Shown: piece by piece, positions 4,965 through 63,445 of the stretch
How the letters are laid out: the number at the start of each line of letters is the position of its first letter
How positions within the stretch are numbered: the stretch's first letter is position 1
DNA from: Candidatus Hydrogenedentota bacterium
Lineage (GTDB): Bacteria > Hydrogenedentota > Hydrogenedentia > Hydrogenedentales > CAILVY01
Reading direction: 5' to 3'
DNA: 64,000 bases
Assembly (NCBI GenBank): GCA_029565395.1
Contig: JAKQOG010000290.1
Location: 24,035 to 88,034 of the forward strand
The notes under the pieces: generated by a model
What the model was told of the DNA's origin: nothing
What the model saw: the letters and a program-made list of their open reading frames with translations, nothing else
The model's database searches: none
Made by a program: the position numbers and the translations under genes

Positions 4965-6128
4965 TTACCAAAGAGGCGGCTTATATGCAGCGGTTAACGT
5001 ATGCCCGCTGAGCGGGGGGTGCAACGCATTTACGTCAATGCCCATGCGGGTTAAAATGGTCGGGGTGATGTCTTCACGCATTCCCCGGCGTTTGACTTTC
5101 GCGTCGTTGGTGGCGAGAAACACATACGGGGCATCGGCATGGGTCTTTATACCTTCGTCAAATCCATGATCCGCCGTGACATACACCAGCGTCTTGTCAT
5201 ACAAGCCAAGGTCTTTAAGCTTCTGTAAAATGGCCCCCGTCAAGGTATCGGCAGCAATAAGCGCGTGAGTATATTCAGGTGAATTTTCCCCGAACATGTG
5301 GCCCGCATCGTCAATCTCCCCAAAATGCACAAAGAAAAAGAACGGCTGATCTTTGTATTTGTCTATCAGTTCAAGCGTTTTTTCCCCCACCACCGCATCT
5401 TTATGAAGCCCATTTATGAACACATCAATGCCGTCTTTCATATGGAAATACGGCTTTCCTGGAATAAAACGGTATTTTTTCCCATTCTCTTCGATTATTT
5501 TCCCTTCCGCGGGTTTTCGCTTCTGGGGCCGCTGGGGAGTCTGTTCCGCTGGAGGAGTCGGTTCAGGCGGGGCAGGTTCCATGGACGAAGACACGGGCAG
5601 TTCACTCTCTGAAGAGGCGGCGGATTGTCCCGGAACTGGACGGGCCTTTGTGGGCTTTTTCGTGGGGGCGGGTTTAGGAGGTTCTGCGGCAGGCGCTTCA
5701 TCGAGAGGGATCTTCTGCGGGCCAATGGCTTCCATGTGTTCCCGTTTGCAAATCACGGCCACGGTAATGATATTGTCTTTCCCGAAATAGTTTTCCAGGC
5801 GTTCCGGCAGGGTATACCCCTTGGGAATGGACCAACTGCGCGCATTGCTGAACACGCCGGTGAATTCCGGTTCGTATCCAGTCAGAATCTGCGTCCATCC
5901 GGCTTTAGTGTCGGTCGTGCGAAGGATATCTATAGCCACCAATGCGCCTTCCTCACCGAGTGCTGTAAGATGAGGCAGTTCGCCTCGATCCATACATTCC
6001 TTTATATGATTGCGCTGTGCGGCATCCCATCCAATCAGGACGACATTGTACGGGGGGCCTCCGGCCATTGCCGTGGAGACCGCCAGTAAAATAGAGCCCA
6101 ATACCAGCAACAATATATACTTGTACAT
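4965..6128 (-). CDS. Secreted alkaline-phosphatase-superfamily enzyme, type I phosphodiesterase/nucleotide pyrophosphatase (NPP)-like, with a ~70-aa Pro/Glu/Ser-rich low-complexity insertion
   Basis: Signal peptide (MYKYILLLVLGSILLAVSTAMA). VLIGWDAAQRNH resembles the NPP LLISxDGFR block; VHFGEIDDAGHMFG resembles the NPP metal-binding PDxxGH block; VYVTADHGF. Insertion DEAPAAEPPKPAPTKKPTKARPVPG...PAPPEPTPPAEQTPQRPQKRKPAEG in mid-protein. Confidence 0.65.
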   Translation of the reverse strand: MYKYILLLVLGSILLAVSTAMAGGPPYNVVLIGWDAAQRNHIKECMDRGELPHLTALGEEGALVAIDILRTTDTKAGWTQILTGYEPEFTGVFSNARSWSIPKGYTLPERLENYFGKDNIITVAVICKREHMEAIGPQKIPLDEAPAAEPPKPAPTKKPTKARPVPGQSAASSESELPVSSSMEPAPPEPTPPAEQTPQRPQKRKPAEGKIIEENGKKYRFIPGKPYFHMKDGIDVFINGLHKDAVVGEKTLELIDKYKDQPFFFFVHFGEIDDAGHMFGENSPEYTHALIAADTLTGAILQKLKDLGLYDKTLVYVTADHGFDEGIKTHADAPYVFLATNDAKVKRRGMREDITPTILTRMGIDVNALHPPLSGHTLTAAYKPPLW

Positions 6129-7675: not shown

Positions 7676-9646
<1,971 letters not shown>

Positions 9647-21189: not shown

Positions 21190-22053
21190 ATGACACCAGC
21201 CGGGTCCATACGCCGAGGAAGGCATTTTTACAGCTCGCAGACATCTTTTTCGACTGATCTGCGGGTCTGGATCATTATTTCATTGATGATGCATATTGCA
21301 TTGGCGGGTGTCGGATATCGCTTTAATGAATGGTTAATCGCGAGTATTCCCGAAGCCATTACCATTCAACTCTTTGAAGCGGAAGGACCAGGGATGGGTG
21401 AACCCGCCGCCGGCCCCAAGACACCTCCGCCGAAACCTGAAGCACCCAAACCAGAGCCGCCGAAACCGGAACCCCCAAAACCAGAACCGCCCAAGCCCGA
21501 ACCGAAACCAGAACCTCCAAAGCCTGAACCGGTTCCTGAAGTCAAACCAGATCCAAAACCAGAGCCCAAGCCCGAACCGAAACCGGAGCCGAAACCTACG
21601 CCAAAGCCTTCACCGAAACCGGTGGCAAAACCCACGCCAAAACCGGAACCCAAGCCTTTACAGGTGGCAAGCAATACCCCTCCGCGCACCACTCCCGGGG
21701 GAGGGGCATTGACCGGCAAAAGCGGCGTAAGAACTCCGGGCGGCGGCAGCGGCATTCCCTCCGAATTGAGTCTGTGGGGCCGGCAGGTAGTCCGAAAAGT
21801 GGAAGAGCAATGGTTCTATCCCGAAGGCATAGACATCGATCCTGCGAACAACATGGCGGAAGTGATGTTCACAATAGACCGTAATGGAAATTTAACTGGC
21901 GAACCGGCTATTGTCAAAGAAGCGAATGATTCGCGTGTGGGACAATCCGGCTTGGAGGCTATCAAAGCGGCAGCCCCGTTTCCTCCTTTGCCGGAAACTT
22001 ACACGGGAGCCCAATTACAGATCATTTACAGTTTCACCATGGAACAACTTTAA
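21190..22053 (+). CDS. TonB/TolA-family energy-transducer protein (N-terminal TM anchor, Pro-rich PEPPKPEP linker, TonB_C-like C-terminal domain)
   Basis: TM helix, then about 100 aa of (P-E/K-P) repeats, then a C-terminal domain (YPEGIDIDPANNMAEVMFTIDRNGNLTG...AAAPFPPLP) typical of TonB/TolA C-termini; immediately upstream of tolB. Confidence 0.75.
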   Translation: MTPAGSIRRGRHFYSSQTSFSTDLRVWIIISLMMHIALAGVGYRFNEWLIASIPEAITIQLFEAEGPGMGEPAAGPKTPPPKPEAPKPEPPKPEPPKPEPPKPEPKPEPPKPEPVPEVKPDPKPEPKPEPKPEPKPTPKPSPKPVAKPTPKPEPKPLQVASNTPPRTTPGGGALTGKSGVRTPGGGSGIPSELSLWGRQVVRKVEEQWFYPEGIDIDPANNMAEVMFTIDRNGNLTGEPAIVKEANDSRVGQSGLEAIKAAAPFPPLPETYTGAQLQIIYSFTMEQL

Positions 22054-39963: not shown

Positions 39964-40925
39964 ATCTAAAGACGGTCATTGCGAACCCCAAATGATTGTC
40001 CCAGGGCTATCGCATTAAAAAAAGCCGATACATTGACATTTCTCAAGAACCGAGCCTCTCCTTCGCAAGGGATTTGCCAGCGTTTGTTTGAATCAACCCA
40101 ATGACAAAGGCGATTTTGCGGGGAATTTTAATGCGATAGCCCTGATGATTGTCCCGATTATTCATTGAATGGAAAAAGAGGCCGGGAGGGCAAAGTTTAT
40201 CACGCGTCTCGCGTGACTCACGCCGGGCCGTGCGGCAAAACATCCCAATTTGTCATTGCAAGGAGCGCCAGCAACGAAGCAATCTCGGAGCCATGTCAAC
40301 CCTGCCCATAGTAGCGCCACTTTCTTAGCAGCGAAGCGAAGTAATCTCGCCGGATTGTCAGCTGTGCATGGTTTCGGGATTGCTTCGCTTCGCTGCTAAG
40401 AAAGTGGCCATGATCGGGAGGGCGAGGTTTATCCACCGCAGGAGGGCTCCTGATGCTGTCTGAGAATTCTCTTTAAGAGTTATTTGATATGACTTGGCAA
40501 AGCTCAGAGTATCCCGCAGGGATTCAATAATTCCAGCCCAGGGTTGTGCGTCAGCGCTACCCTGGGTATGCTGCATCCCTAGAATAGCGCCTACCCTGAA
40601 AGGGTTGGCGCATGGTTAGGTTTAAAATTAAATTTCAACGCGTTGTATAACCCCTTCAGGGTTGGTTTATTAGGGATCTTGACCCAGGGTAGCGCCGGGC
40701 GCAACCCTGGGCTGGAATTATCAATCCCCGTTGGGGATTGCCGATTTTTTCTGTGATTAGCAGACATCGCACGGTCTCTTTTCGTTGTGATCGGCTTTTA
40801 TGAATTCTCAGACAGACTCGGGAGCCCTCCTGCGGCGGATAAACCTCGCCCTCCCGATGGACATGTTCACAACAAGCGCAAAATAACAACCTATGAAAAT
40901 CGATTAGGGATTCTGCAACGTTAAC
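39964..40925. repeat. ~950-bp noncoding region of nested and degenerate palindromic repeats (MITE nest or possible large structured RNA)
   Basis: No ORF with protein-like composition. Contains an inverted repeat 39988-40020 / 40127-40156; a perfect 26-bp stem 40315-40340 / 40383-40408; a 36-bp inverted repeat 40415-40450 / 40821-40855 starting with GGGAGGGCGAGG (same terminus as the MITE family); and an inner ~45-bp inverted repeat 40519-40567 / 40692-40740. Confidence 0.7.
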
Positions 40926-56137: not shown

Positions 56138-56437
56138 TCACCTTACTTCAATAAGTTCGAGGCGAAGGCGCTTCCCTACTGCGGCTGCTGCACGCTGCAG
56201 CGTATGCAATGTAACGGAGGTATTAGTGGCATCCAACAAACGATCAAGTGCCGGCCTGCTTGTGCGCATACGACGCGCCATCTGTGCTTTTGAAAGCCCT
56301 TCAGCCCTCATTGCCTGATCTATCTGCATGGCAAGAAGTTCTTTGATGGCACGTTCCTCGCACTCTTCCAATATCCCCTCCTCCGCCAAAAAATCATCAA
56401 ACAATGATCCAATATTTCCCTTATTCTGTTTCTTCAT
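56138..56437 (-). CDS. XRE-family HTH antitoxin (HigA-like)
   Basis: 99-aa product with HTH region (LSKAQMARRMRTSRPALDRLLD); immediately downstream of and co-oriented with the Gp49-like toxin gene; low local GC. Confidence 0.6.
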   Translation of the reverse strand: MKKQNKGNIGSLFDDFLAEEGILEECEERAIKELLAMQIDQAMRAEGLSKAQMARRMRTSRPALDRLLDATNTSVTLHTLQRAAAAVGKRLRLELIEVR

Positions 56438-56460
56438 GGTAAAACCACCTCCATCATTTC

Positions 56461-56805
56461 CTATCGCCTTATTAGTGACTTCATCCGTTTGTAAGCAAGT
56501 TCAATGTCTTGGCTTGGTGTTTTCTGCGTTTTCTTAATAAAACCATGAAAAAGAACCATGGTCCCTTCCACAAAGCCAAAAATAACTCGCGCTATTCTGC
56601 CGTCAGATATGTTGCTCCGTATTTCCCAAAGACCAGATCCCAAGGATCGACACACTGGAAGCCCAATAGACCAGCCAAATTCAACTTTTTGGATATCTTT
56701 CCCAATGGTTTTTCGGTCATTAGCGTCCAATTCTTTTAACCACTGGCGAACGGGTTCCTCCCCGCTTTCAGCGGCAAAAAATCGCGCTGGAACTTTTTTA
56801 TACAT
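56461..56805 (-). CDS. Gp49-like (PF05973/DUF891) RelE/HigB-superfamily toxin
   Basis: 114-aa product; the blocks ARVIFGFVEGTMVLFHGFIKKTQKTPSQDIELAYKRM are the hallmark of phage Gp49-like addiction-module killer proteins. Confidence 0.6.
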   Translation of the reverse strand: MYKKVPARFFAAESGEEPVRQWLKELDANDRKTIGKDIQKVEFGWSIGLPVCRSLGSGLWEIRSNISDGRIARVIFGFVEGTMVLFHGFIKKTQKTPSQDIELAYKRMKSLIRR

Positions 56806-56887: not shown

Positions 56888-59800
56888 TCATTCCGGCACC
56901 GCCTGATACAACGTATGGCCATTCGCGGCGAGTTTGACCATCGCCCACGTGGCGGTTGCCGGATCGGAGAATCGGAACAGTACATCCTGGCTTTGAAATG
57001 GCGGCACGGCGACGGCCGCGCGGCGAGGCAATACGGTCACCTTGGGGGATCCTCCGAGTTCCGGCCAAAATTCCACCGGCACGATCAAGTCCACAAATCC
57101 TTCCGAGGGGATGCCGCTTTTATTCTGTATGGTGACCTTCACCTGTGCCTCGTTGCGTGACACGGTCATTGCCAGCGGCTGCTCCATCCGATCCAGCACA
57201 TCGCGAATGATCTGATCCTTATAGGTGGTCCAGGCCACCAGCCCGCCGGTGTCCGCGCCCAACGTGGGCGATACCACGGAGATATCCTCTTCTTTAGACT
57301 CGCCCGGCTTCAGGTTGTAATAAAATTGCCCAGGACCCACGCTCCAGCCATCCGCGGCTTGAAGATATACAATCCCTTCGAGCGTCTTGTCGGACAGATG
57401 ATTGGCAATCACCGCCTCCACTTTCGTTTCCGCCTCCTCCAGGCTGCCCCGCAACACCAGCGACAGCGGCATGTTCCCCAAAGGCGCCGTGCCCAGGTGA
57501 TGTTCCCAATAACGGCTGTGCACCGGGCCAAAGAGATCTGCCTCCGGCCCCAGGGTTGCGCGTTCGCCATGCGTAAAGCGCGTGGTGGGCAGCATCCACA
57601 CGGTATCCACATCAAACCCATTCGATTCCAGACGAATCGACGCATCTTCCCCCTTCAACGTCTTGCCGGGATCTTCGAGCAGCGTCGAATACGATGCGCT
57701 GGTAAACGGCACGAAGAATTGGAGGTTTCCCTTCCAGGGCCGGCCGGTGGCTTCCCAGCCACGCATCACCAGCCCATTGCGCGGATGCGCGGCATTGGCC
57801 TGCATCGAAGCCATAGCGTACCCCGCCGGTTTCAACGTGCTCATAAGCCAACCAGGCGGATTTACCTCCAAAAACCCTTGCAGGCCCGGCTGATGTCCCG
57901 TATGCAAATCAGAAACCGACGTCAAGAACAGCTCATTATACGCGCGCGCTTCCCGCGCCACTGCGGCATCGCGCCAATCACCGTCAAATGGACATAAGGC
58001 ATACTGGAACGTTTGGACGTTCTCCGGGGCCGCGCCATGCGCCAACCCCACTGCAAGCGTGCCATCACGCTCCAGGCTGCATAGCTTTGCCCCCTGGAAA
58101 AACACCGCAACACCATTCGTGGCCTTCGCTGGTGTTTTTTCGGGAAGATAACCCGAGGGCGGCAAGTCATAGTGTCCGCGCGAACCCACCGATTCTGCAA
58201 AATCCGAAGCCATGGCGGCACTGCGATCCGGCGCCGCGCCCGCCAGAATTATTGTCGGAACCGGCGCATATCCTTCCGGGACCATTCCGTCTTCAAGATA
58301 CAGCGCCGCGCCCTGCGGAACCTGTTCCAAGAATTGCTTCGCTGCGGTCTCCGGCAATTCCTTTACCAACCGTCCACACACCGTATTCTGTGCAGGATCC
58401 CCGATCACGATTCGCATCGCCGCGCCATGATCCAGATCCGCGTCCAGGTTCACGAATTCTGTCGAATCCGTCCACAAAAAATCCGGCTTATCGGGCGCAT
58501 CGGACGTCATGCCCGCGGGAATGCCCCGCCGCACCAGCGCATTCATCACGGTGCGCGCCGCCTCTTTCAATGCCGGAACTTTTCCATAAACAATCTGGCA
58601 CGGCCCCAGCGGTACAGCACCCTCAAAACCAATCTGTATGCAGTCAGTTGGCGAAACCGCCACCCAGTCCAAGGCCGGTTGCGCGCCAGTGCCCGACGGA
58701 TTCTCCGCGCCCTTGCTGCGGAAATCGAACGTGGACCGGCTGCGGCGTCCCGCCACCGCTCCGAAACGTTCGCCAAACACTGGCGCCCGCTGTTCCGATG
58801 GCACGGAAAACAGCGCCACAAGCATTTTCCCTTCCAGGTTCACTCCTTCAGTTCGGGTTTCGCAATCCACGCGCGGCACGCCTCGGTATAGGGTAATTTC
58901 CCGCGTCAATGTTCCCCCGCCAAACGGGCCGCGCACTGCAAGCTTCTGCATCCCCTCCAGGATCTCACTCTTCACCTCTTCGGGTTTTTCCGTGGAGACC
59001 GTTTGCTTGCCGGTGGTCCAAAGTTCCCTGCCGGAATCCGTTTGCGCGGAATCTTCCTCCAGCAGAATCAATTGATTCATCGGCCCTTTGGCATAATCGA
59101 CATTTGTGCGCTTATCCAATAATTTGCGAATCGCACCGGTTGCGGCATCCAAGGCCACCAGGAAAAACTCATTTTCGATCTGCGCATCGCCGCGCACCAC
59201 CGCCTCTTGTGGTTTTCCCTCTGGTTGAATATAAAACGTTCGATAGCCGGCCGCAGGGATATTTTGCGCCACAAACCGGACCCGCGCGGCGCGCACCGCC
59301 TGTTTCGATGCATCTGTGTACCGTATCCGATCCGCCTGAAACGGCACGGCATTCCCAAAATTATCTAAAAGTGCAAGCCCCTTCGCGTTGTCCAGCTCCA
59401 CTTCCACTTCGCACACGTCCGTGCGCGGCCACGAAGAGGGATTAAACACCACCAGCGCCTTCACGCCCTCCATACTGATTGGCGCGGTTTTTAGCGTATC
59501 CGCTTCTTTGGCCACGTACGCCAGCGACTTGCGCAACACCCCGTCGATCAACTCCGCCAATTCCCGGTATGCGGAGAGCGTGTCCGCATAGGCCTCTTCC
59601 GAAGAAGCCACGCCCAGCCGGTCCGGAGCGCTCCAATACATAATGCTCCGCCACGCACGATCCAGCGCCACATCCGGATAGTCCGCCCCCAGCAGCGCCG
59701 CCACGGACGCAAACCGTTCCGCGATCAATAAACGGTTTTCCGCGATGGCATGCGCGCGTTTGAGATCCGGTTGCGCCAGCACGGCCCCCGGATACCGCGC

Positions 59801-61621
59801 CGTCAACAACCGCCCGCTGTCAGGAACATGCTCTTTGCTCTCGGGATCGAGACGCGCCAAATCGGACATAAAAACGTTCCCGCCGCTTCCTTGCAGGCGA
59901 ATCGCGGGATATGATTGCGCCAGTTCGCGCGATGCACCCATGAGAAACGGCTCCGGCGGAGTCAGCACACTCTCCAACACCAGCACGTCCGAAACAATGC
60001 CCCAATCCAATAATTCACGCCGCTGTAACGCCGCCATCTGCCGCAATTCATCCGCATTCGCCGGACCAGGACATGCCTGTTTACGCCGGTGAAAAACCTG
60101 CGAGCCATTCAATGCGGCATGACGAAACAACGGTGGCAATCCCAATACTTGCACATTGCTGATGAGGCCGCCTAATCCCGCCTGATCCAGCAACTGCGGG
60201 GTCTGTGGCGCGATGCCGGGCAAATCCCACGCGCAGCATGCCGGACGCGTAATGTTCAGCCAATCCCGCGCGGCGGCACGGCCATACGCGATATTTCGCG
60301 CGATCACTTCACCCCCCACGAGCCGCTCGTCCGGCATCGCATACGCCGCCAGCGCGCCAATATGCTCTCCCGCCTGCTGAAGCACATGCACATACTCCGG
60401 ATACGCAATCAATGCCGCCTCCCATTGCTGTGCCGGGCCAAGATCAATTCCATACTCCCGCTCCTGCTCCATAAGCATCCACTGCCGGTGCAGCGATCCC
60501 ACGCGCGCATCCATTTTCGCGGCTTCATCCACTTCAGGCTCCGCCGCATACCGCTGCCCGCTCACCACATACACCGTTCCCCCTTTTACGCGCGGCTGCA
60601 CCGCCAAATTCCAGGCGAACACCGCGCTCACATCGCCGCCCTCCGCATCCTTTGACGCCAACCGGACCTTTACCGGAATCGTCAAGCCTGCGGGTGTGGC
60701 CCCGGCAGGCACGGGAACCCGTTCTTTCCAGGCTTCTCCGGGTTTTATGGCCGCGATCCGCCGCACCTCCGGATTCACCGGAGTATTCGCGGTCACAATC
60801 ACGTCCACTGGCGGCGAAACCTTGCTCCCCGCATTGAACAGCGTCAGCCAGGTGTCCTGCCGCACGTCGTTCGCGCTCCCGGAAAAGGCCCCTGCGTTTT
60901 CCAGACGCGGCACGTAAAACACTTCGCCCAAGGGCAACGCCGCATACAGCTTCAATGCAATTTCATAACCGCTCACCCCCCGCAATAGCGGACGGTTTAC
61001 AAATACACGCGTGCCGAGTTCGTTCTCACTCATATCTGCTGCTTTCGCCAGCGCTTCAAACGTTATCCCCGGCACTTCACACACGAAAAAATTCATCCCC
61101 GGACGAAACGCAACCGTAAAATAATCCGCCCCCATCGAGGTTACCGGTCCGCCGTGAACATCGCGCACGGGAAAACCGTTCATCCACGCACGCACCCCCA
61201 GCGGACTTTGCAATTCCATGAACACCGTCCGTGCATCCGGCGTCTCTGCATAAAACCCCGCATACGCAACCCCTTCCGCCGCATCCGGAAAAAACGGGGC
61301 AAGATTCAGCGAATAATCCGCCGTGCCCGCCCGTTGCCAGATGGCTTCCCCCCCCTCTTTTCTCACCTTGACCAAGTGTTGCGGACGCATCTGCGCAACC
61401 CCCCTGATCGGCTCCATGAAATCCTTATCCCCCAGCGGAGGCTCGCCCCGCTGAAGCGCCCCCGCAATGCCGCCCTCCTTATCCGAAGCAAACGGCCCGC
61501 ACACCAGCCAATGCGCCACATAGCCACGTTCCAAAATCGTGTCGAGCTGTTCCTGAGCCGCAGAATACGGCCCCGCCAACAACAGCGCCCCAATCAGCGC
61601 GGCATACAGGCTATGTCGCAT
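56888..61621 (-). CDS. Giant secreted multidomain protein (~1578 aa), putative glycoside hydrolase (alpha-mannosidase GH38-like C-terminal architecture; family uncertain)
   Basis: Start taken at ATG 61621 giving a classic signal peptide MRHSLYAALIGALLLAGPYSAAQE (longest ORF reaches 61750). The segment ALVVFNPSSWPRTDVCEVEVEL is typical of GH38-type C-terminal beta-sandwich domains; coding-like composition throughout. Confidence 0.6.
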   Translation of the reverse strand: MRHSLYAALIGALLLAGPYSAAQEQLDTILERGYVAHWLVCGPFASDKEGGIAGALQRGEPPLGDKDFMEPIRGVAQMRPQHLVKVRKEGGEAIWQRAGTADYSLNLAPFFPDAAEGVAYAGFYAETPDARTVFMELQSPLGVRAWMNGFPVRDVHGGPVTSMGADYFTVAFRPGMNFFVCEVPGITFEALAKAADMSENELGTRVFVNRPLLRGVSGYEIALKLYAALPLGEVFYVPRLENAGAFSGSANDVRQDTWLTLFNAGSKVSPPVDVIVTANTPVNPEVRRIAAIKPGEAWKERVPVPAGATPAGLTIPVKVRLASKDAEGGDVSAVFAWNLAVQPRVKGGTVYVVSGQRYAAEPEVDEAAKMDARVGSLHRQWMLMEQEREYGIDLGPAQQWEAALIAYPEYVHVLQQAGEHIGALAAYAMPDERLVGGEVIARNIAYGRAAARDWLNITRPACCAWDLPGIAPQTPQLLDQAGLGGLISNVQVLGLPPLFRHAALNGSQVFHRRKQACPGPANADELRQMAALQRRELLDWGIVSDVLVLESVLTPPEPFLMGASRELAQSYPAIRLQGSGGNVFMSDLARLDPESKEHVPDSGRLLTARYPGAVLAQPDLKRAHAIAENRLLIAERFASVAALLGADYPDVALDRAWRSIMYWSAPDRLGVASSEEAYADTLSAYRELAELIDGVLRKSLAYVAKEADTLKTAPISMEGVKALVVFNPSSWPRTDVCEVEVELDNAKGLALLDNFGNAVPFQADRIRYTDASKQAVRAARVRFVAQNIPAAGYRTFYIQPEGKPQEAVVRGDAQIENEFFLVALDAATGAIRKLLDKRTNVDYAKGPMNQLILLEEDSAQTDSGRELWTTGKQTVSTEKPEEVKSEILEGMQKLAVRGPFGGGTLTREITLYRGVPRVDCETRTEGVNLEGKMLVALFSVPSEQRAPVFGERFGAVAGRRSRSTFDFRSKGAENPSGTGAQPALDWVAVSPTDCIQIGFEGAVPLGPCQIVYGKVPALKEAARTVMNALVRRGIPAGMTSDAPDKPDFLWTDSTEFVNLDADLDHGAAMRIVIGDPAQNTVCGRLVKELPETAAKQFLEQVPQGAALYLEDGMVPEGYAPVPTIILAGAAPDRSAAMASDFAESVGSRGHYDLPPSGYLPEKTPAKATNGVAVFFQGAKLCSLERDGTLAVGLAHGAAPENVQTFQYALCPFDGDWRDAAVAREARAYNELFLTSVSDLHTGHQPGLQGFLEVNPPGWLMSTLKPAGYAMASMQANAAHPRNGLVMRGWEATGRPWKGNLQFFVPFTSASYSTLLEDPGKTLKGEDASIRLESNGFDVDTVWMLPTTRFTHGERATLGPEADLFGPVHSRYWEHHLGTAPLGNMPLSLVLRGSLEEAETKVEAVIANHLSDKTLEGIVYLQAADGWSVGPGQFYYNLKPGESKEEDISVVSPTLGADTGGLVAWTTYKDQIIRDVLDRMEQPLAMTVSRNEAQVKVTIQNKSGIPSEGFVDLIVPVEFWPELGGSPKVTVLPRRAAVAVPPFQSQDVLFRFSDPATATWAMVKLAANGHTLYQAVPE

Positions 61622-61811
61622 CGTCCCAGTCATGCCCCGCATTGTGGCTGGAATCCCCGCCGTAAGGCAAATAATCCAACCCCATACACGCTGGCCTCGA
61701 AGAATACTCTTAACCTGCATTTTCCACCAACGCTTAATCATACTCGTCATTGCGAGTTCCCCACCCGCCGCAGGCGGGGTGAATTATAAAGAAACACCTA
61801 AACGCATCCAC

Positions 61812-61914
61812 GCCGTTATCGCTATCGCTATCGCTATCGCTATCGCTTTTGGCATCGCTATCGCTATCGTTATCGCTATCGTTATCGCTATCGCTATCGC
61901 TATCGCTATCGTGT
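61812..61914. repeat. Hexanucleotide microsatellite (ATCGCT)5 - TTTGGC - (ATCGCT/ATCGTT)10
   Basis: Direct reading of 61812-61914. Sits in the ~500-bp divergent region between the giant secreted gene (-) and queF (+). Confidence 0.9.
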
Positions 61915-62247
61915 TCCCCATTATGTCTGCTTCCTCTTCTTCCACCTCATCCAATTGCTCCTACTGGTCCTCTTCTCCCAGTCTTCCCAGTCTCTTGCCG
62001 CGGCGAAGTTCCGGTCTCGCGGAACGAAGCCGGGTCCCAGACCTCCAACCGGTTTGCATCCCCTGCACCTTGCGTTTCTAAAAAGTCCCCGGCGAAGAAA
62101 ACGTGCCAAAAAGAAAACTACTACTGCGATGACCATTTACGCTACGCTTATACACGGCGACTCTGAACATACAAGCAATCTTGGAATGACAAATGAAATG
62201 AAGAGTTGACTAAAAACCAGGGTAGTTTACCGAACATCGAGGCGGAT

Positions 62248-62697
62248 ATGAGCACACCATCCAAAAATCGCGGTCAATTTCAGGCGCAGGACAAGACGAT
62301 CCCGTTCAAGGGCCCGGAGGCAATCGACTCCGCCTGTCTGGAATGTTTTGAATACGCATATCACAACACGCCGCACGGTCAGGCCATGGAAATCGTCACC
62401 ACCACGAACGAGTTCACCTCCGTGTGCCCGTTTTCCGGCCTGCCGGATTTCGCCGAGGTGAAAATCGCCTACATCCCGGACAAGCGCTGCATCGAGTTGC
62501 GCTCGTTGAAATATTATCTGCTTTCCTACCGCGATGTGGGCATTTGGTATGAACACCTCGTCAATCGCATGCTGGAAGATCTCGTTCGCGCGTGCAAACC
62601 CCGCCGAATGACCATCACCATCACCTGCAATCCTCGCGGCGGCCTCGCAAGCACTGTCACCGCCTCTTACGACCGGGAAACTAATCCCGCGCTTTAA
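62248..62697 (+). CDS. queF: NADPH-dependent 7-cyano-7-deazaguanine reductase QueF (unimodular type I)
   Basis: Active-site Cys block TSVCPFSGLPDFA and the QueF motif E(L)RSLKYYLLSYRD; start at ATG 62248 with RBS AGGCGGA (longest ORF from 62206). Confidence 0.8.
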   Translation: MSTPSKNRGQFQAQDKTIPFKGPEAIDSACLECFEYAYHNTPHGQAMEIVTTTNEFTSVCPFSGLPDFAEVKIAYIPDKRCIELRSLKYYLLSYRDVGIWYEHLVNRMLEDLVRACKPRRMTITITCNPRGGLASTVTASYDRETNPAL

Positions 62698-62719
62698 CCC
62701 GGACCGTTTAATAGAGATT

Positions 62720-62826
62720 GGGAGGGCGAGGCTCTCGCCGAGCCGTAAAACTAAACAACCCAATGCAATATGATTAAACAATAATCCCGATCTTGTTTGA
62801 CGGCTCGACGGGAGCCTCGCCCTCCC
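62720..62826. repeat. MITE-like palindromic element, copy 3 (107 bp)
   Basis: Termini GGGAGGGCGAGGCTCTCGCCGAGCCGT / ACGGCTCGACGGGAGCCTCGCCCTCCC; lies between convergent queF and udk. Confidence 0.85.
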
Positions 62827-62842
62827 ATACACAGGGAAATGA

Positions 62843-63445
62843 TTAGGCCAAGCGGGATCGGATCTCCGCAATGACGCTCTGCCACGCGTCCACGGTTTCT
62901 CCGGAAACAATTCTTCCGGCAAACGCTTTTGCCGGTTCGACAAATTGTTCGTGCATGGGCTGTACCTGACTCTGAAATTGTTGAAGCACGCTCTCGCGGG
63001 TCCGCCCGCGCTCCGCTACATCCCGCTGCATACGCCGGCTCAGCCGCTCCGTCTCATCCAACTCCACGAAGAGCGTTAAATCAAAAAGAGCGCGCAAGTC
63101 CGGATGCCCCAACACATGCAGCCCCTCCACCACAATAATGGGCTTGGGATGAATGCGGCGGCAGCCCGGCGCACGCACATGCCGCGTAAAATCGTACACC
63201 GGCGCTTCAATCGGCGCCCCGGCTTTCAAGGCGAGCAATTCCTGAATGAGCCGATCCGTCTCCAGGGCATCGGGATGGTCATAGTTGGTCAAAAGCCGTT
63301 CTTCAAACGTCTTGGCCTGCTGATCCCGGTAATACCAATCGTGTTCCAAAACAACCGTCTGTTCCGGGAAACAATCGCAAATATATCCCGCAAGCGTGCT
63401 CTTACCCGAACCCGTCCCGCCCGCAATGCCAATACATACTCCCAT
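62843..63445 (-). CDS. udk: Uridine kinase
   Basis: P-loop IGIAGGTGSGKST at the N-terminus and uridine kinase/PRK-family blocks (DHPDALETD, VVEGLHVLGHP, RRMQRDVAERGR). Confidence 0.8.
   Translation of the reverse strand: MGVCIGIAGGTGSGKSTLAGYICDCFPEQTVVLEHDWYYRDQQAKTFEERLLTNYDHPDALETDRLIQELLALKAGAPIEAPVYDFTRHVRAPGCRRIHPKPIIVVEGLHVLGHPDLRALFDLTLFVELDETERLSRRMQRDVAERGRTRESVLQQFQSQVQPMHEQFVEPAKAFAGRIVSGETVDAWQSVIAEIRSRLA

Follow-up and report, generated by a model that had tools for sequence, protein, structure and literature searches.

A Hexanucleotide Array Between queF and a GH38-Like Gene as a Probable Module of a Small Interspersed Repeat in a Candidatus Hydrogenedentes Lineage

A Hexamer Array in a Divergent Intergenic Region

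The DNA analyzed here is a 64,000-nucleotide stretch of a Candidatus Hydrogenedentota contig (hereafter, the window), in which a hexanucleotide array lies in the divergent intergenic region between queF and the gene for a large, predicted-secreted protein. A short tandem repeat in such a position raises the question of whether it serves as a contingency locus, where changes in unit number would switch the adjacent genes, or is simply a neutral microsatellite; a sequence-only reading of the window had put forward both.

By direct reading, Tandem Repeats Finder, and cross-copy comparison, we placed the array at 61814–61913, counting the phases of both strands. On the plus strand, five (ATCGCT) units (61818–61847) are followed by TTTGGC (61848–61853), which keeps the register, and by a block of 10 units (61854–61913), three of which are variants (two ATCGTT units and the last unit, ATCGTG). 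In the minus-strand phase, the array comprises 16 slots of ATAGCG-type units (61814–61909). The three variants and the 6-nt spacer interrupt the tract, the longest perfect run being five units in the ATCGCT phase and four in the ATAGCG phase. Tandem Repeats Finder reported it at 61817–61911 (period 6, 15.8 copies, 86% matches, score 148) as the sole long hexamer array within the 64-kb window. The 18-mer ATCGCTATCGCTATCGCT (three units), searched with up to two mismatches, gave 11 matches in the window, all within 61818–61913, and its pattern had no match in 100 dinucleotide-preserving shuffles. The sequence-only reading had arrived at the same count, 15 units in two blocks with ATCGTT variants, and had set the repeat at 61812–61914, within a few bases of 61818–61913.

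On one side of the array, a minus-strand gene (56888–61621) encodes a GH38-like protein of 1577 a.a with a predicted signal peptide, which has weak Pfam matches to the GH38 N-terminal, middle, and C-terminal domains and is called at the same length by JGI; by inspection, its N-terminus (MRHSLYAALIGALLLAGPYSAA, followed by Q) resembles a signal peptide. On the other side lies queF (62248–62697, plus strand), encoding preQ1 synthase (Pfam QueF, E = 2.4e-26), for which an identical protein at NCBI is named preQ(1) synthase. Both neighbors had been described in this way before, and the array lies 197–292 nt from the GH38-like ATG (61621) and 335 nt from the queF ATG (62248), close to the earlier estimates of 190–290 bp and ~330 bp. 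The intergenic region, given as ~500 bp, is 626 bp long (61622–62247), and the flank taken for CT-rich low-complexity DNA turned out to be conserved repeat-element sequence, in which (TCCCAGTCT)x2 forms a second tandem repeat. Immediately downstream of the GH38-like gene, we also observed a minus-strand pair (56138–56805) encoding a HigB-like protein (Pfam Gp49, 114 a.a) and an HTH_37 antitoxin-like protein (99 a.a).

Paralogous Copies of a Composite Element

The array recurs, together with the sequence around it, at four or more paralogous sites; at the four found, both the adjoining genes and the flanking DNA are unrelated. Searching with the ORF that runs through the window array retrieved the related ORFs P0001/P0006 and with them a copy upstream of an alpha-L-fucosidase (GH29) gene (L013; contig DAONNH010000134.1), located in the same MAG, GCA_035393045.1; the window and fucosidase-locus copies lie on two contigs of this one Candidatus Hydrogenedentes MAG. 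A metagenome pattern scan revealed a copy at the carB locus (L020), which is without the 5′ block and the 3′ hairpin block, and the protein match P0128 led to a copy between a 470-a.a gene and a convergent folC-like gene (L031). ERZ795059 and JGI 3300010355 each yielded three of the element loci. The genes adjoining the four copies have no function in common, and a nhmmer profile built from the four copies detected no fifth within the ~300 kb of DNA searched.

Wider scans returned little. The pattern GGTGGAAGAAGAGGAAGCAGA had four matches in a genome collection, all by chance and in unrelated phyla, the species representatives of that collection including neither this genome nor close kin. The right flank GTGTTCCCCATTATGTCTGCTTCC had no match in a metagenome scan; JGI contigs do carry GTGTTCCCCATTATGTCTGCTTCC, so the scanned collection was one without those samples. 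Viral-contig scans likewise had no matches. At the queF loci of the relatives P0014, P0018, and P0019 (80–85% amino-acid identity in QueF), both the element and the synteny are missing.

Using the nhmmer profile and paralogue alignments (L013, L020, and L031), we delimited the window copy of the dispersed element, termed family A, to 61707–62086 on the minus strand (profile matches at 62086–61854 and 61882–61707), so that it occupies 380 of the 626 intergenic bases (61%). Its modules follow, on the minus strand, the order 5′ block, (GACTGGGAR)n, AG-rich block, (ATAGCG)n, and 3′ block; in the DNA alignment, the shared unit reads TTAGAAAC..GGGATGCAAACCGGTTGGAGGTCTGGGA, (GACTGGGAR)n, ..AAGGTGGAAGAAGAGGAAGCAGAYATAATGGRGAACACG, (ATAGCG)n, ATAACSGCGTGGATG..AGGTGTTTCTT..CACCCCGCC-loop-GGCGKGTGGGGAACTCGCAATGAC.

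All modules of the window copy are given here on the minus strand. The 5′ conserved block, TTAGAAACGCAAGGTGCAGGGGATGCAAACCGGTTGGAGGTCTGGGA (62035–62081), is 94% identical to that of L031 and 85% to that of the fucosidase-locus copy, and is missing from the truncated carB-locus copy. Next to it lies an insert of ~40 nt found in the window copy only (61994–62034; a gap in L013, L020, and L031), which holds a 13-nt imperfect inverted repeat (62001–62013/62020–62032). The second tandem module, (GACTGGGAR)x2 (TCCCAGTCT on the plus strand; 61976–61993), was recognized by Tandem Repeats Finder and cross-copy comparison, with a degenerate third nonamer unit, GGTCTGGGA, at 62035–62043. The AG-rich conserved block, GAGGTGGAAGAAGAGGAAGCAGACATAATGGGGAACACG (61910–61948; 87–97% identity among the four copies), includes a CATAAT/TATAAT-like hexamer as well as the ATG (61921) belonging to a gene-caller ORF. 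On the far side of the hexamer array, the 3′ conserved block, GCGTGGATG..GGTGTTTCTT..CACCCCGCC-TGC-GGCGGGTGGGGAACTCGCAATGAC (61746–61813), includes a GC hairpin and shares 91% identity with L031 and 87% with the fucosidase-locus copy. It is followed by a 3′ extension (..ATGATT..GTTGGTG..ATGCAGGTYAA; 61707–61745), common to the L031 copy, which overlaps the N-terminal extension of a longer call for the GH38-like protein.

This longer call, made by NCBI and in some JGI annotations, starts the GH38-like protein at 61750 (1620 a.a), adding 129 bases (61622–61750). The start codon and the first ~44 extra bases (61707–61750) lie inside the element, in sequence conserved at the fucosidase-locus and L031 copies. 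The start at 61621 (1577 a.a), which opens a plausible signal peptide, is more likely than that at 61750.

The two tandem modules differ from copy to copy. The window copy has 16 hexamer slots, with three ATAACG variants and the spacer pair ATGCCA AAAGCG, and three nonamers along with its 40-nt copy-specific insert. The fucosidase-locus copy has 11 hexamer slots (variants ATACCG, ATTGCG, GTAGCG, and ATAACG) and five nonamers, the carB-locus copy three hexamer slots and seven nonamers (7.2 copies by Tandem Repeats Finder), and the L031 copy 17 hexamer slots (variants ATTGCG, ATACCG, and ATGGCG) and five nonamers. Each copy has its own set of variant units, and runs of identical units do not exceed four to five in any of them. 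Between their flanking blocks, the hexamer arrays span 18–102 nt, and helical phase is not kept. The non-repeat blocks are 83–97% identical between copies, with the exception of the truncated 3′ part of the carB-locus copy. Given that unit numbers differ while these blocks stay so similar, both tandem modules evolve much faster than their flanks; the arrays would change length by replication slippage or unequal recombination over evolutionary time and would be largely unconstrained.

We therefore consider the hexamer array to be, probably, an internal variable-number module of a small, non-coding, composite BOX/MITE-like interspersed repeat of ~350–380 nt, which occurs at at least four unrelated sites in one Candidatus Hydrogenedentes lineage. 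The suggestion of a neutral microsatellite came nearer to the evidence in this respect, yet it missed that the array belongs to a dispersed element of ~380 nt.

Invariance of the Locus Across Assemblies

The queF/GH38-like locus is present in three JGI metagenomes, two ENA assemblies, and GCA_035393045.1 (contig DAONNH010000001.1). Across five assemblies (JGI 3300009780, 3300025871, and 3300010355; NCBI GCA_035393045.1; and ENA ERZ795059), the 361 bases at 61740–62100, comprising the array and nearly all of the element, are base-for-base identical. These five are consensus sequences, apparently of one strain, and the flanks of the locus are likewise 100% identical. Such identity argues against fast length change, while consensus sequences are compatible with minority length variants. 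Comparing unit number across strains or reads had been proposed as a check on the switch idea, and the number is invariant in these five consensus assemblies of apparently one strain; no array-length variant appeared among the cluster look-ups. At the fucosidase locus, the copy in L013 differs from that in L014/L021 by only a G/A substitution in one nonamer (GACTGGGAG vs. GACTGAGAG; L021 ~8075–8085), and the number of nonamer units is equal.

Promoter and Leader Features

A phase-variable repeat would sit within the promoter core, between the promoter and the start codon, or where a regulator of the controlled gene binds. A consensus scan found no sigma-70-like promoter in any of the four copies, bearing in mind that the promoter rules of the host phylum may differ. 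A TATAAT/CATAAT/TAAAAT hexamer is kept in the AG-rich block across copies, and it is without a −35 partner. Since the paralogue arrays range from 18 to 102 nt, the hexamer array cannot be a fixed spacer between −35 and −10 promoter elements. No relevant Rfam match was found at E ≤ 1 in 61000–63000, and the RNA fold of the element is no better than that of shuffled sequences (z = +0.25 on the minus strand, −0.31 on the plus strand).

Three candidate signals were considered and set aside. The hairpin CCCCGCC-TGC-GGCGGG after the small ORF has no U-tract, and substitutions in L013 and L031 break its pairs without compensation, which does not fit an attenuator or terminator. A terminator-like site in L031 (6260–6277) is not conserved in the other copies. 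A sigma-54-like TTGGCAT-N5-TCGCT (TTGGCATCGCTATCGCT; 61849–61865, plus strand, facing queF), in which GG-N10-GC resembles −24/−12 spacing, occurs in the window copy only and is probably a chance match, given that the 6-nt periodicity makes a GG/GC spacing trivial.

Of the four copies, three precede a gene that reads in their own direction (GH38-like, GH29 fucosidase, and carB), ending ~45 nt before the fucosidase ATG and about 85–125 nt before the GH38-like start. Due to these short gaps (85 nt and ~45 nt to the ATGs), the GH38-like and fucosidase genes probably either share their transcript with the element or have it directly upstream. One could accordingly picture a portable regulatory cassette, supplying an outward promoter or 5′ leader, with the lengths of its hexamer and nonamer arrays setting or switching downstream expression as a phase or rheostat device. 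The ~45-nt gap would place the fucosidase promoter inside or upstream of the element, the hexamer of the AG-rich block is conserved, and array lengths do vary from copy to copy; the shared orientation of three copies would also fit such a cassette. However, the conserved hexamer has neither a −35 partner nor a sigma-70-like match, the arrays are interrupted (no more than four to five identical units in a row), no length variant occurs among the five assemblies, and the downstream genes are functionally unrelated. The L031 copy, moreover, faces the 3′ end of a convergent gene, at a site where two convergent genes end and a promoter is not expected. On balance, we regard a cassette of this kind as unlikely. 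Its more ambitious form, where independent 6-nt and 9-nt arrays would tune or switch downstream transcription or translation, here of two secreted glycoside hydrolases, we consider more doubtful still. Were it true, it would amount to a vlhA-like, repeat-number-based diversification of polysaccharide degradation in a free-living, uncultured anaerobic-digester bacterium.

The proposal that the array is a contingency or phase-variation switch fares poorly against the same observations: the tract is interrupted, five assemblies are identical, no sigma-70-like promoter was detected, the paralogue arrays are variable, and one copy lies between convergent genes. The phase-variation reading of the hexamer array is unsupported by these observations. 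With the array as a module of an interspersed repeat, the window element would be a passenger in a divergent intergenic region and would probably belong to the upstream region or 5′ leader of the GH38-like gene, with no role as a switch. It may still influence the GH38-like and fucosidase genes, as BOX modules can (PMC3049150).

The (Ile-Ala)n Open Reading Frame

Gene callers predict an ORF across the minus strand of the array (61784–61954), of 56 a.a from a TTG or 45 a.a from the ATG at 61921, with the sequence M-G-N-T-(I-A)n-I-T-A-W-M-R-L-G-V-S-L; in the window array, an (Ile-Ala)n frame is open on both strands. As a multi-copy small gene, M-(G/E)-N-T-(Ile-Ala)n-I-(T/S)-(A/G)-W-M would specify a short hydrophobic membrane peptide resembling a type I toxin, or a leader rich in rare ATA codons that senses translation capacity. 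It is typical of type I toxins to occur as small intergenic ORFs in multiple copies, and here the ATG and an upstream GAGGAAG are conserved, the ORF is open in all four copies, and it is predicted by gene callers. In addition, eight of the 12 variant units in L031 alter the wobble base of the Ile codon (to ATT, which is synonymous, or to ATG).

An open frame nevertheless says little in this setting, as a 6-nt unit preserves the frame automatically. The Ile codons of the repeat in the window copy are all ATA, a codon used for 13% of Ile residues across the window's 33 long ORFs, and Ala is often replaced by Pro or Thr. From copy to copy, the hydrophobic core has three to 17 dipeptides; neither the C-terminus nor the stop codon is conserved among copies, and the fucosidase-locus copy is frameshifted. 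Database matches, too, lie only on the element's own copies: an exhaustive HMMER search of 1.84 billion representative proteins gave a single hit, P0128, on the L031 copy, and word-index searches of a 5.8-billion-cluster protein database gave none beyond the ORFs on element copies (P0001 and P0006). Two further (IA)n protein matches, P0002 and P0004, were discarded as unrelated (ATAGCA)n and (ATTGCT)n microsatellites on AT-richer, apparently eukaryote-like marine contigs. The minus-strand (Ile-Ala)n ORF is probably spurious, and a genuine small gene appears very unlikely to us. A variant of the cassette idea would give the all-ATA (Ile-Ala)n leader ORF a part in coupling expression to the supply of the ATA-decoding tRNA.

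Mobility, Recombination, and Other Dispersed Repeats

In L031, the termini form a 33-nt imperfect inverted repeat (CCGAAGGAGGCGGGGGATTCCTTAGAAACAC/GTGTTTCTTCGTAATTCACCCCGCCTGCGTCGG), for which 500 shuffles gave no match. The same terminal arms are degenerate in the window (matched by 191 of 500 shuffles) and in the fucosidase-locus copy (28 of 500), neither being significant, and conserved sequence runs past the 3′ arm. We identified neither a target-site duplication nor an empty site at the four copies, and no partner IS; the closest queF relatives differ in synteny. We therefore infer the mobility of the element rather than show it; recombination may account for its spread, or it may have moved as a non-autonomous sequence of MITE/BOX type.

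A junction between copies appears in the assembly ERZ27257428. In one of its contigs (L003; k141_474340, 2620–2700), the queF side is 99.95% identical to the window, and the sequence beyond the array is 99.25% identical to the carB-locus copy, with the crossover between the window-type and carB-locus copies falling within ~30 nt common to both. The three-unit array of this contig might be mistaken for a contracted allele of the window locus, but comparison with L020 shows the carB-locus paralogue beyond the array, and the contig is not evidence of slippage at the window locus. The contig of the same assembly that carries the GH38-like gene (L030, 1–102) ends inside the array, at window position 61852. 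The junction in L003 reflects either a chimeric assembly at a dispersed repeat or genuine recombination between two copies. If genuine, the copies could act mainly as patches of homology that drive inversions and translocations, with the array at a real rearrangement breakpoint, as the joining of the queF side to the carB-locus copy at the shared ~30 nt would suggest. Against this, a GH38-like contig that stops in the array looks like an unresolved repeat or a chimeric join, and no reciprocal junction was found; even if real, recombination would be a consequence of dispersed repeats and not a dedicated function. We judge a role as recombination substrate to be quite improbable.

Other repeats accompany the element. 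Between the queF stop (62697) and the stop of a convergent uridine-kinase-like gene (62843) lies a near-perfect palindrome of ~108 nt (62719–62826), the RNA of which folds at −64.4 kcal/mol (z = −8.2) and which gave weak, spurious matches to Rfam miRNA models at 62706–62839. Its arms carry GGGAGGGCGAGG, also present at 40183, at 40415, and beside the L031 copy, and the palindrome probably represents either a bidirectional terminator or a second dispersed repeat of palindromic form. Another interspersed family (GTCATTGCRAGG..GAAGCAATCTCG and GGAGCCCTCCTRCGGYGGATAAACCTCGCCCTCCC) occurs in the window at 40250–40450, in L013 at 7775–7850, and in L031 at 5925–5990, with a 34-nt inverted repeat (94%) at 40316–40349/40375–40408. 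Copies of this family directly adjoin two of the four hexamer-bearing elements, and the 3′ end of the hexamer element, CTCGCAATGAC (61746–61756), is the reverse complement of the family motif GTCATTGCGAG. With other dispersed repeats beside two copies and elsewhere in the window, the genome is rich in interspersed repeats.

Two further features were noted. The carB-locus copy adjoins a 71-a.a ORF called on the opposite strand, putatively antitoxin-like as a guess from its sequence. At 21427–21650 of the window, complex tandem repeats with periods of 12, 15, 27, 30, and 36 nt (CCGCCGAAACCGGAACC...) lie inside an ORF (21190–22053); these are coding, proline/lysine/glutamate-rich low complexity and are unrelated to the hexamer element.

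Comparison with Known Repeat Systems

The BOX elements of Streptococcus pneumoniae are composite interspersed repeats of the form boxA-(boxB)n-boxC, and Croucher et al. (2011, PMC3049150) judged that they are most likely parasitic and not dedicated regulators. The likeness to the element described here is considerable: in both, conserved end modules enclose a tandem array with a copy-specific number of units; both are intergenic, dispersed, clustered with other repeat families, and confined to a narrow lineage; and both carry ORFs on both strands, spurious or expressed, here (Ile-Ala)n. There are also differences, in that boxB is far longer than the 6- and 9-nt units seen here, our element has two separate arrays, and strong stem-loops are predicted for BOX transcripts, in contrast to a fold no better than that of shuffled sequences here. 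BOX elements number more than 100 copies per genome, against the four copies found here, and the two share no sequence similarity.

MITEs and Correia-type elements are non-autonomous and bounded by terminal inverted repeats. As with these, the element is small, has no coding capacity for a transposase, and is intergenic at unrelated loci, and its best-preserved copy has the 33-nt imperfect inverted repeat. In contrast, that repeat is weak in the window and fucosidase-locus copies, and the four copies yielded neither a target-site duplication nor a partner IS.

For repeat-controlled expression, the closest comparison is with the (GAA)n repeats of Mycoplasma gallisepticum vlhA, which lie ~40 nt upstream of a mapped TSS in one paralogous surface-lipoprotein family, and where promoter activity requires exactly 12 units (Orlov et al. 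2018, PMC6258824). Both systems show many paralogous upstream regions with highly conserved flanks around a short tandem repeat of varying number. However, the genes downstream of our element are unrelated (GH38-like, GH29, and carB) and one copy has no downstream gene; orthologous copies here are identical (five assemblies), whereas the vlhA repeats vary between orthologous copies.

Classical promoter contingency loci include the (TA)n spacer of hif and the 7-bp repeats of hmw in H. influenzae, as well as (TAAA)n of nadA in N. meningitidis. Their tracts are long, perfect, placed at defined promoter positions, and polymorphic among isolates. The window array resembles them as a short tandem repeat in the upstream or divergent region that precedes a gene encoding a secreted or surface protein, but differs in being interrupted, without a recognizable promoter nearby, and invariant in five assemblies.

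Implications

If the reading as a composite interspersed repeat is right, what looks like a striking promoter microsatellite belongs, as a module, to an interspersed repeat specific to one lineage. The element matters for annotation, as gene callers make spurious (Ile-Ala)n proteins of 45–96 a.a from it and the 1620-a.a call of the GH38-like protein begins inside it, and for assembly, as metagenome contigs of this organism are broken or wrongly joined at such repeats (as in ERZ27257428). Wider interest would follow only from proof that the adjacent glycosidase genes are controlled by array length. In Candidatus Hydrogenedentes, which as a phylum has no cultured members that have been studied genetically, this would be the first composite repeat family to be described.
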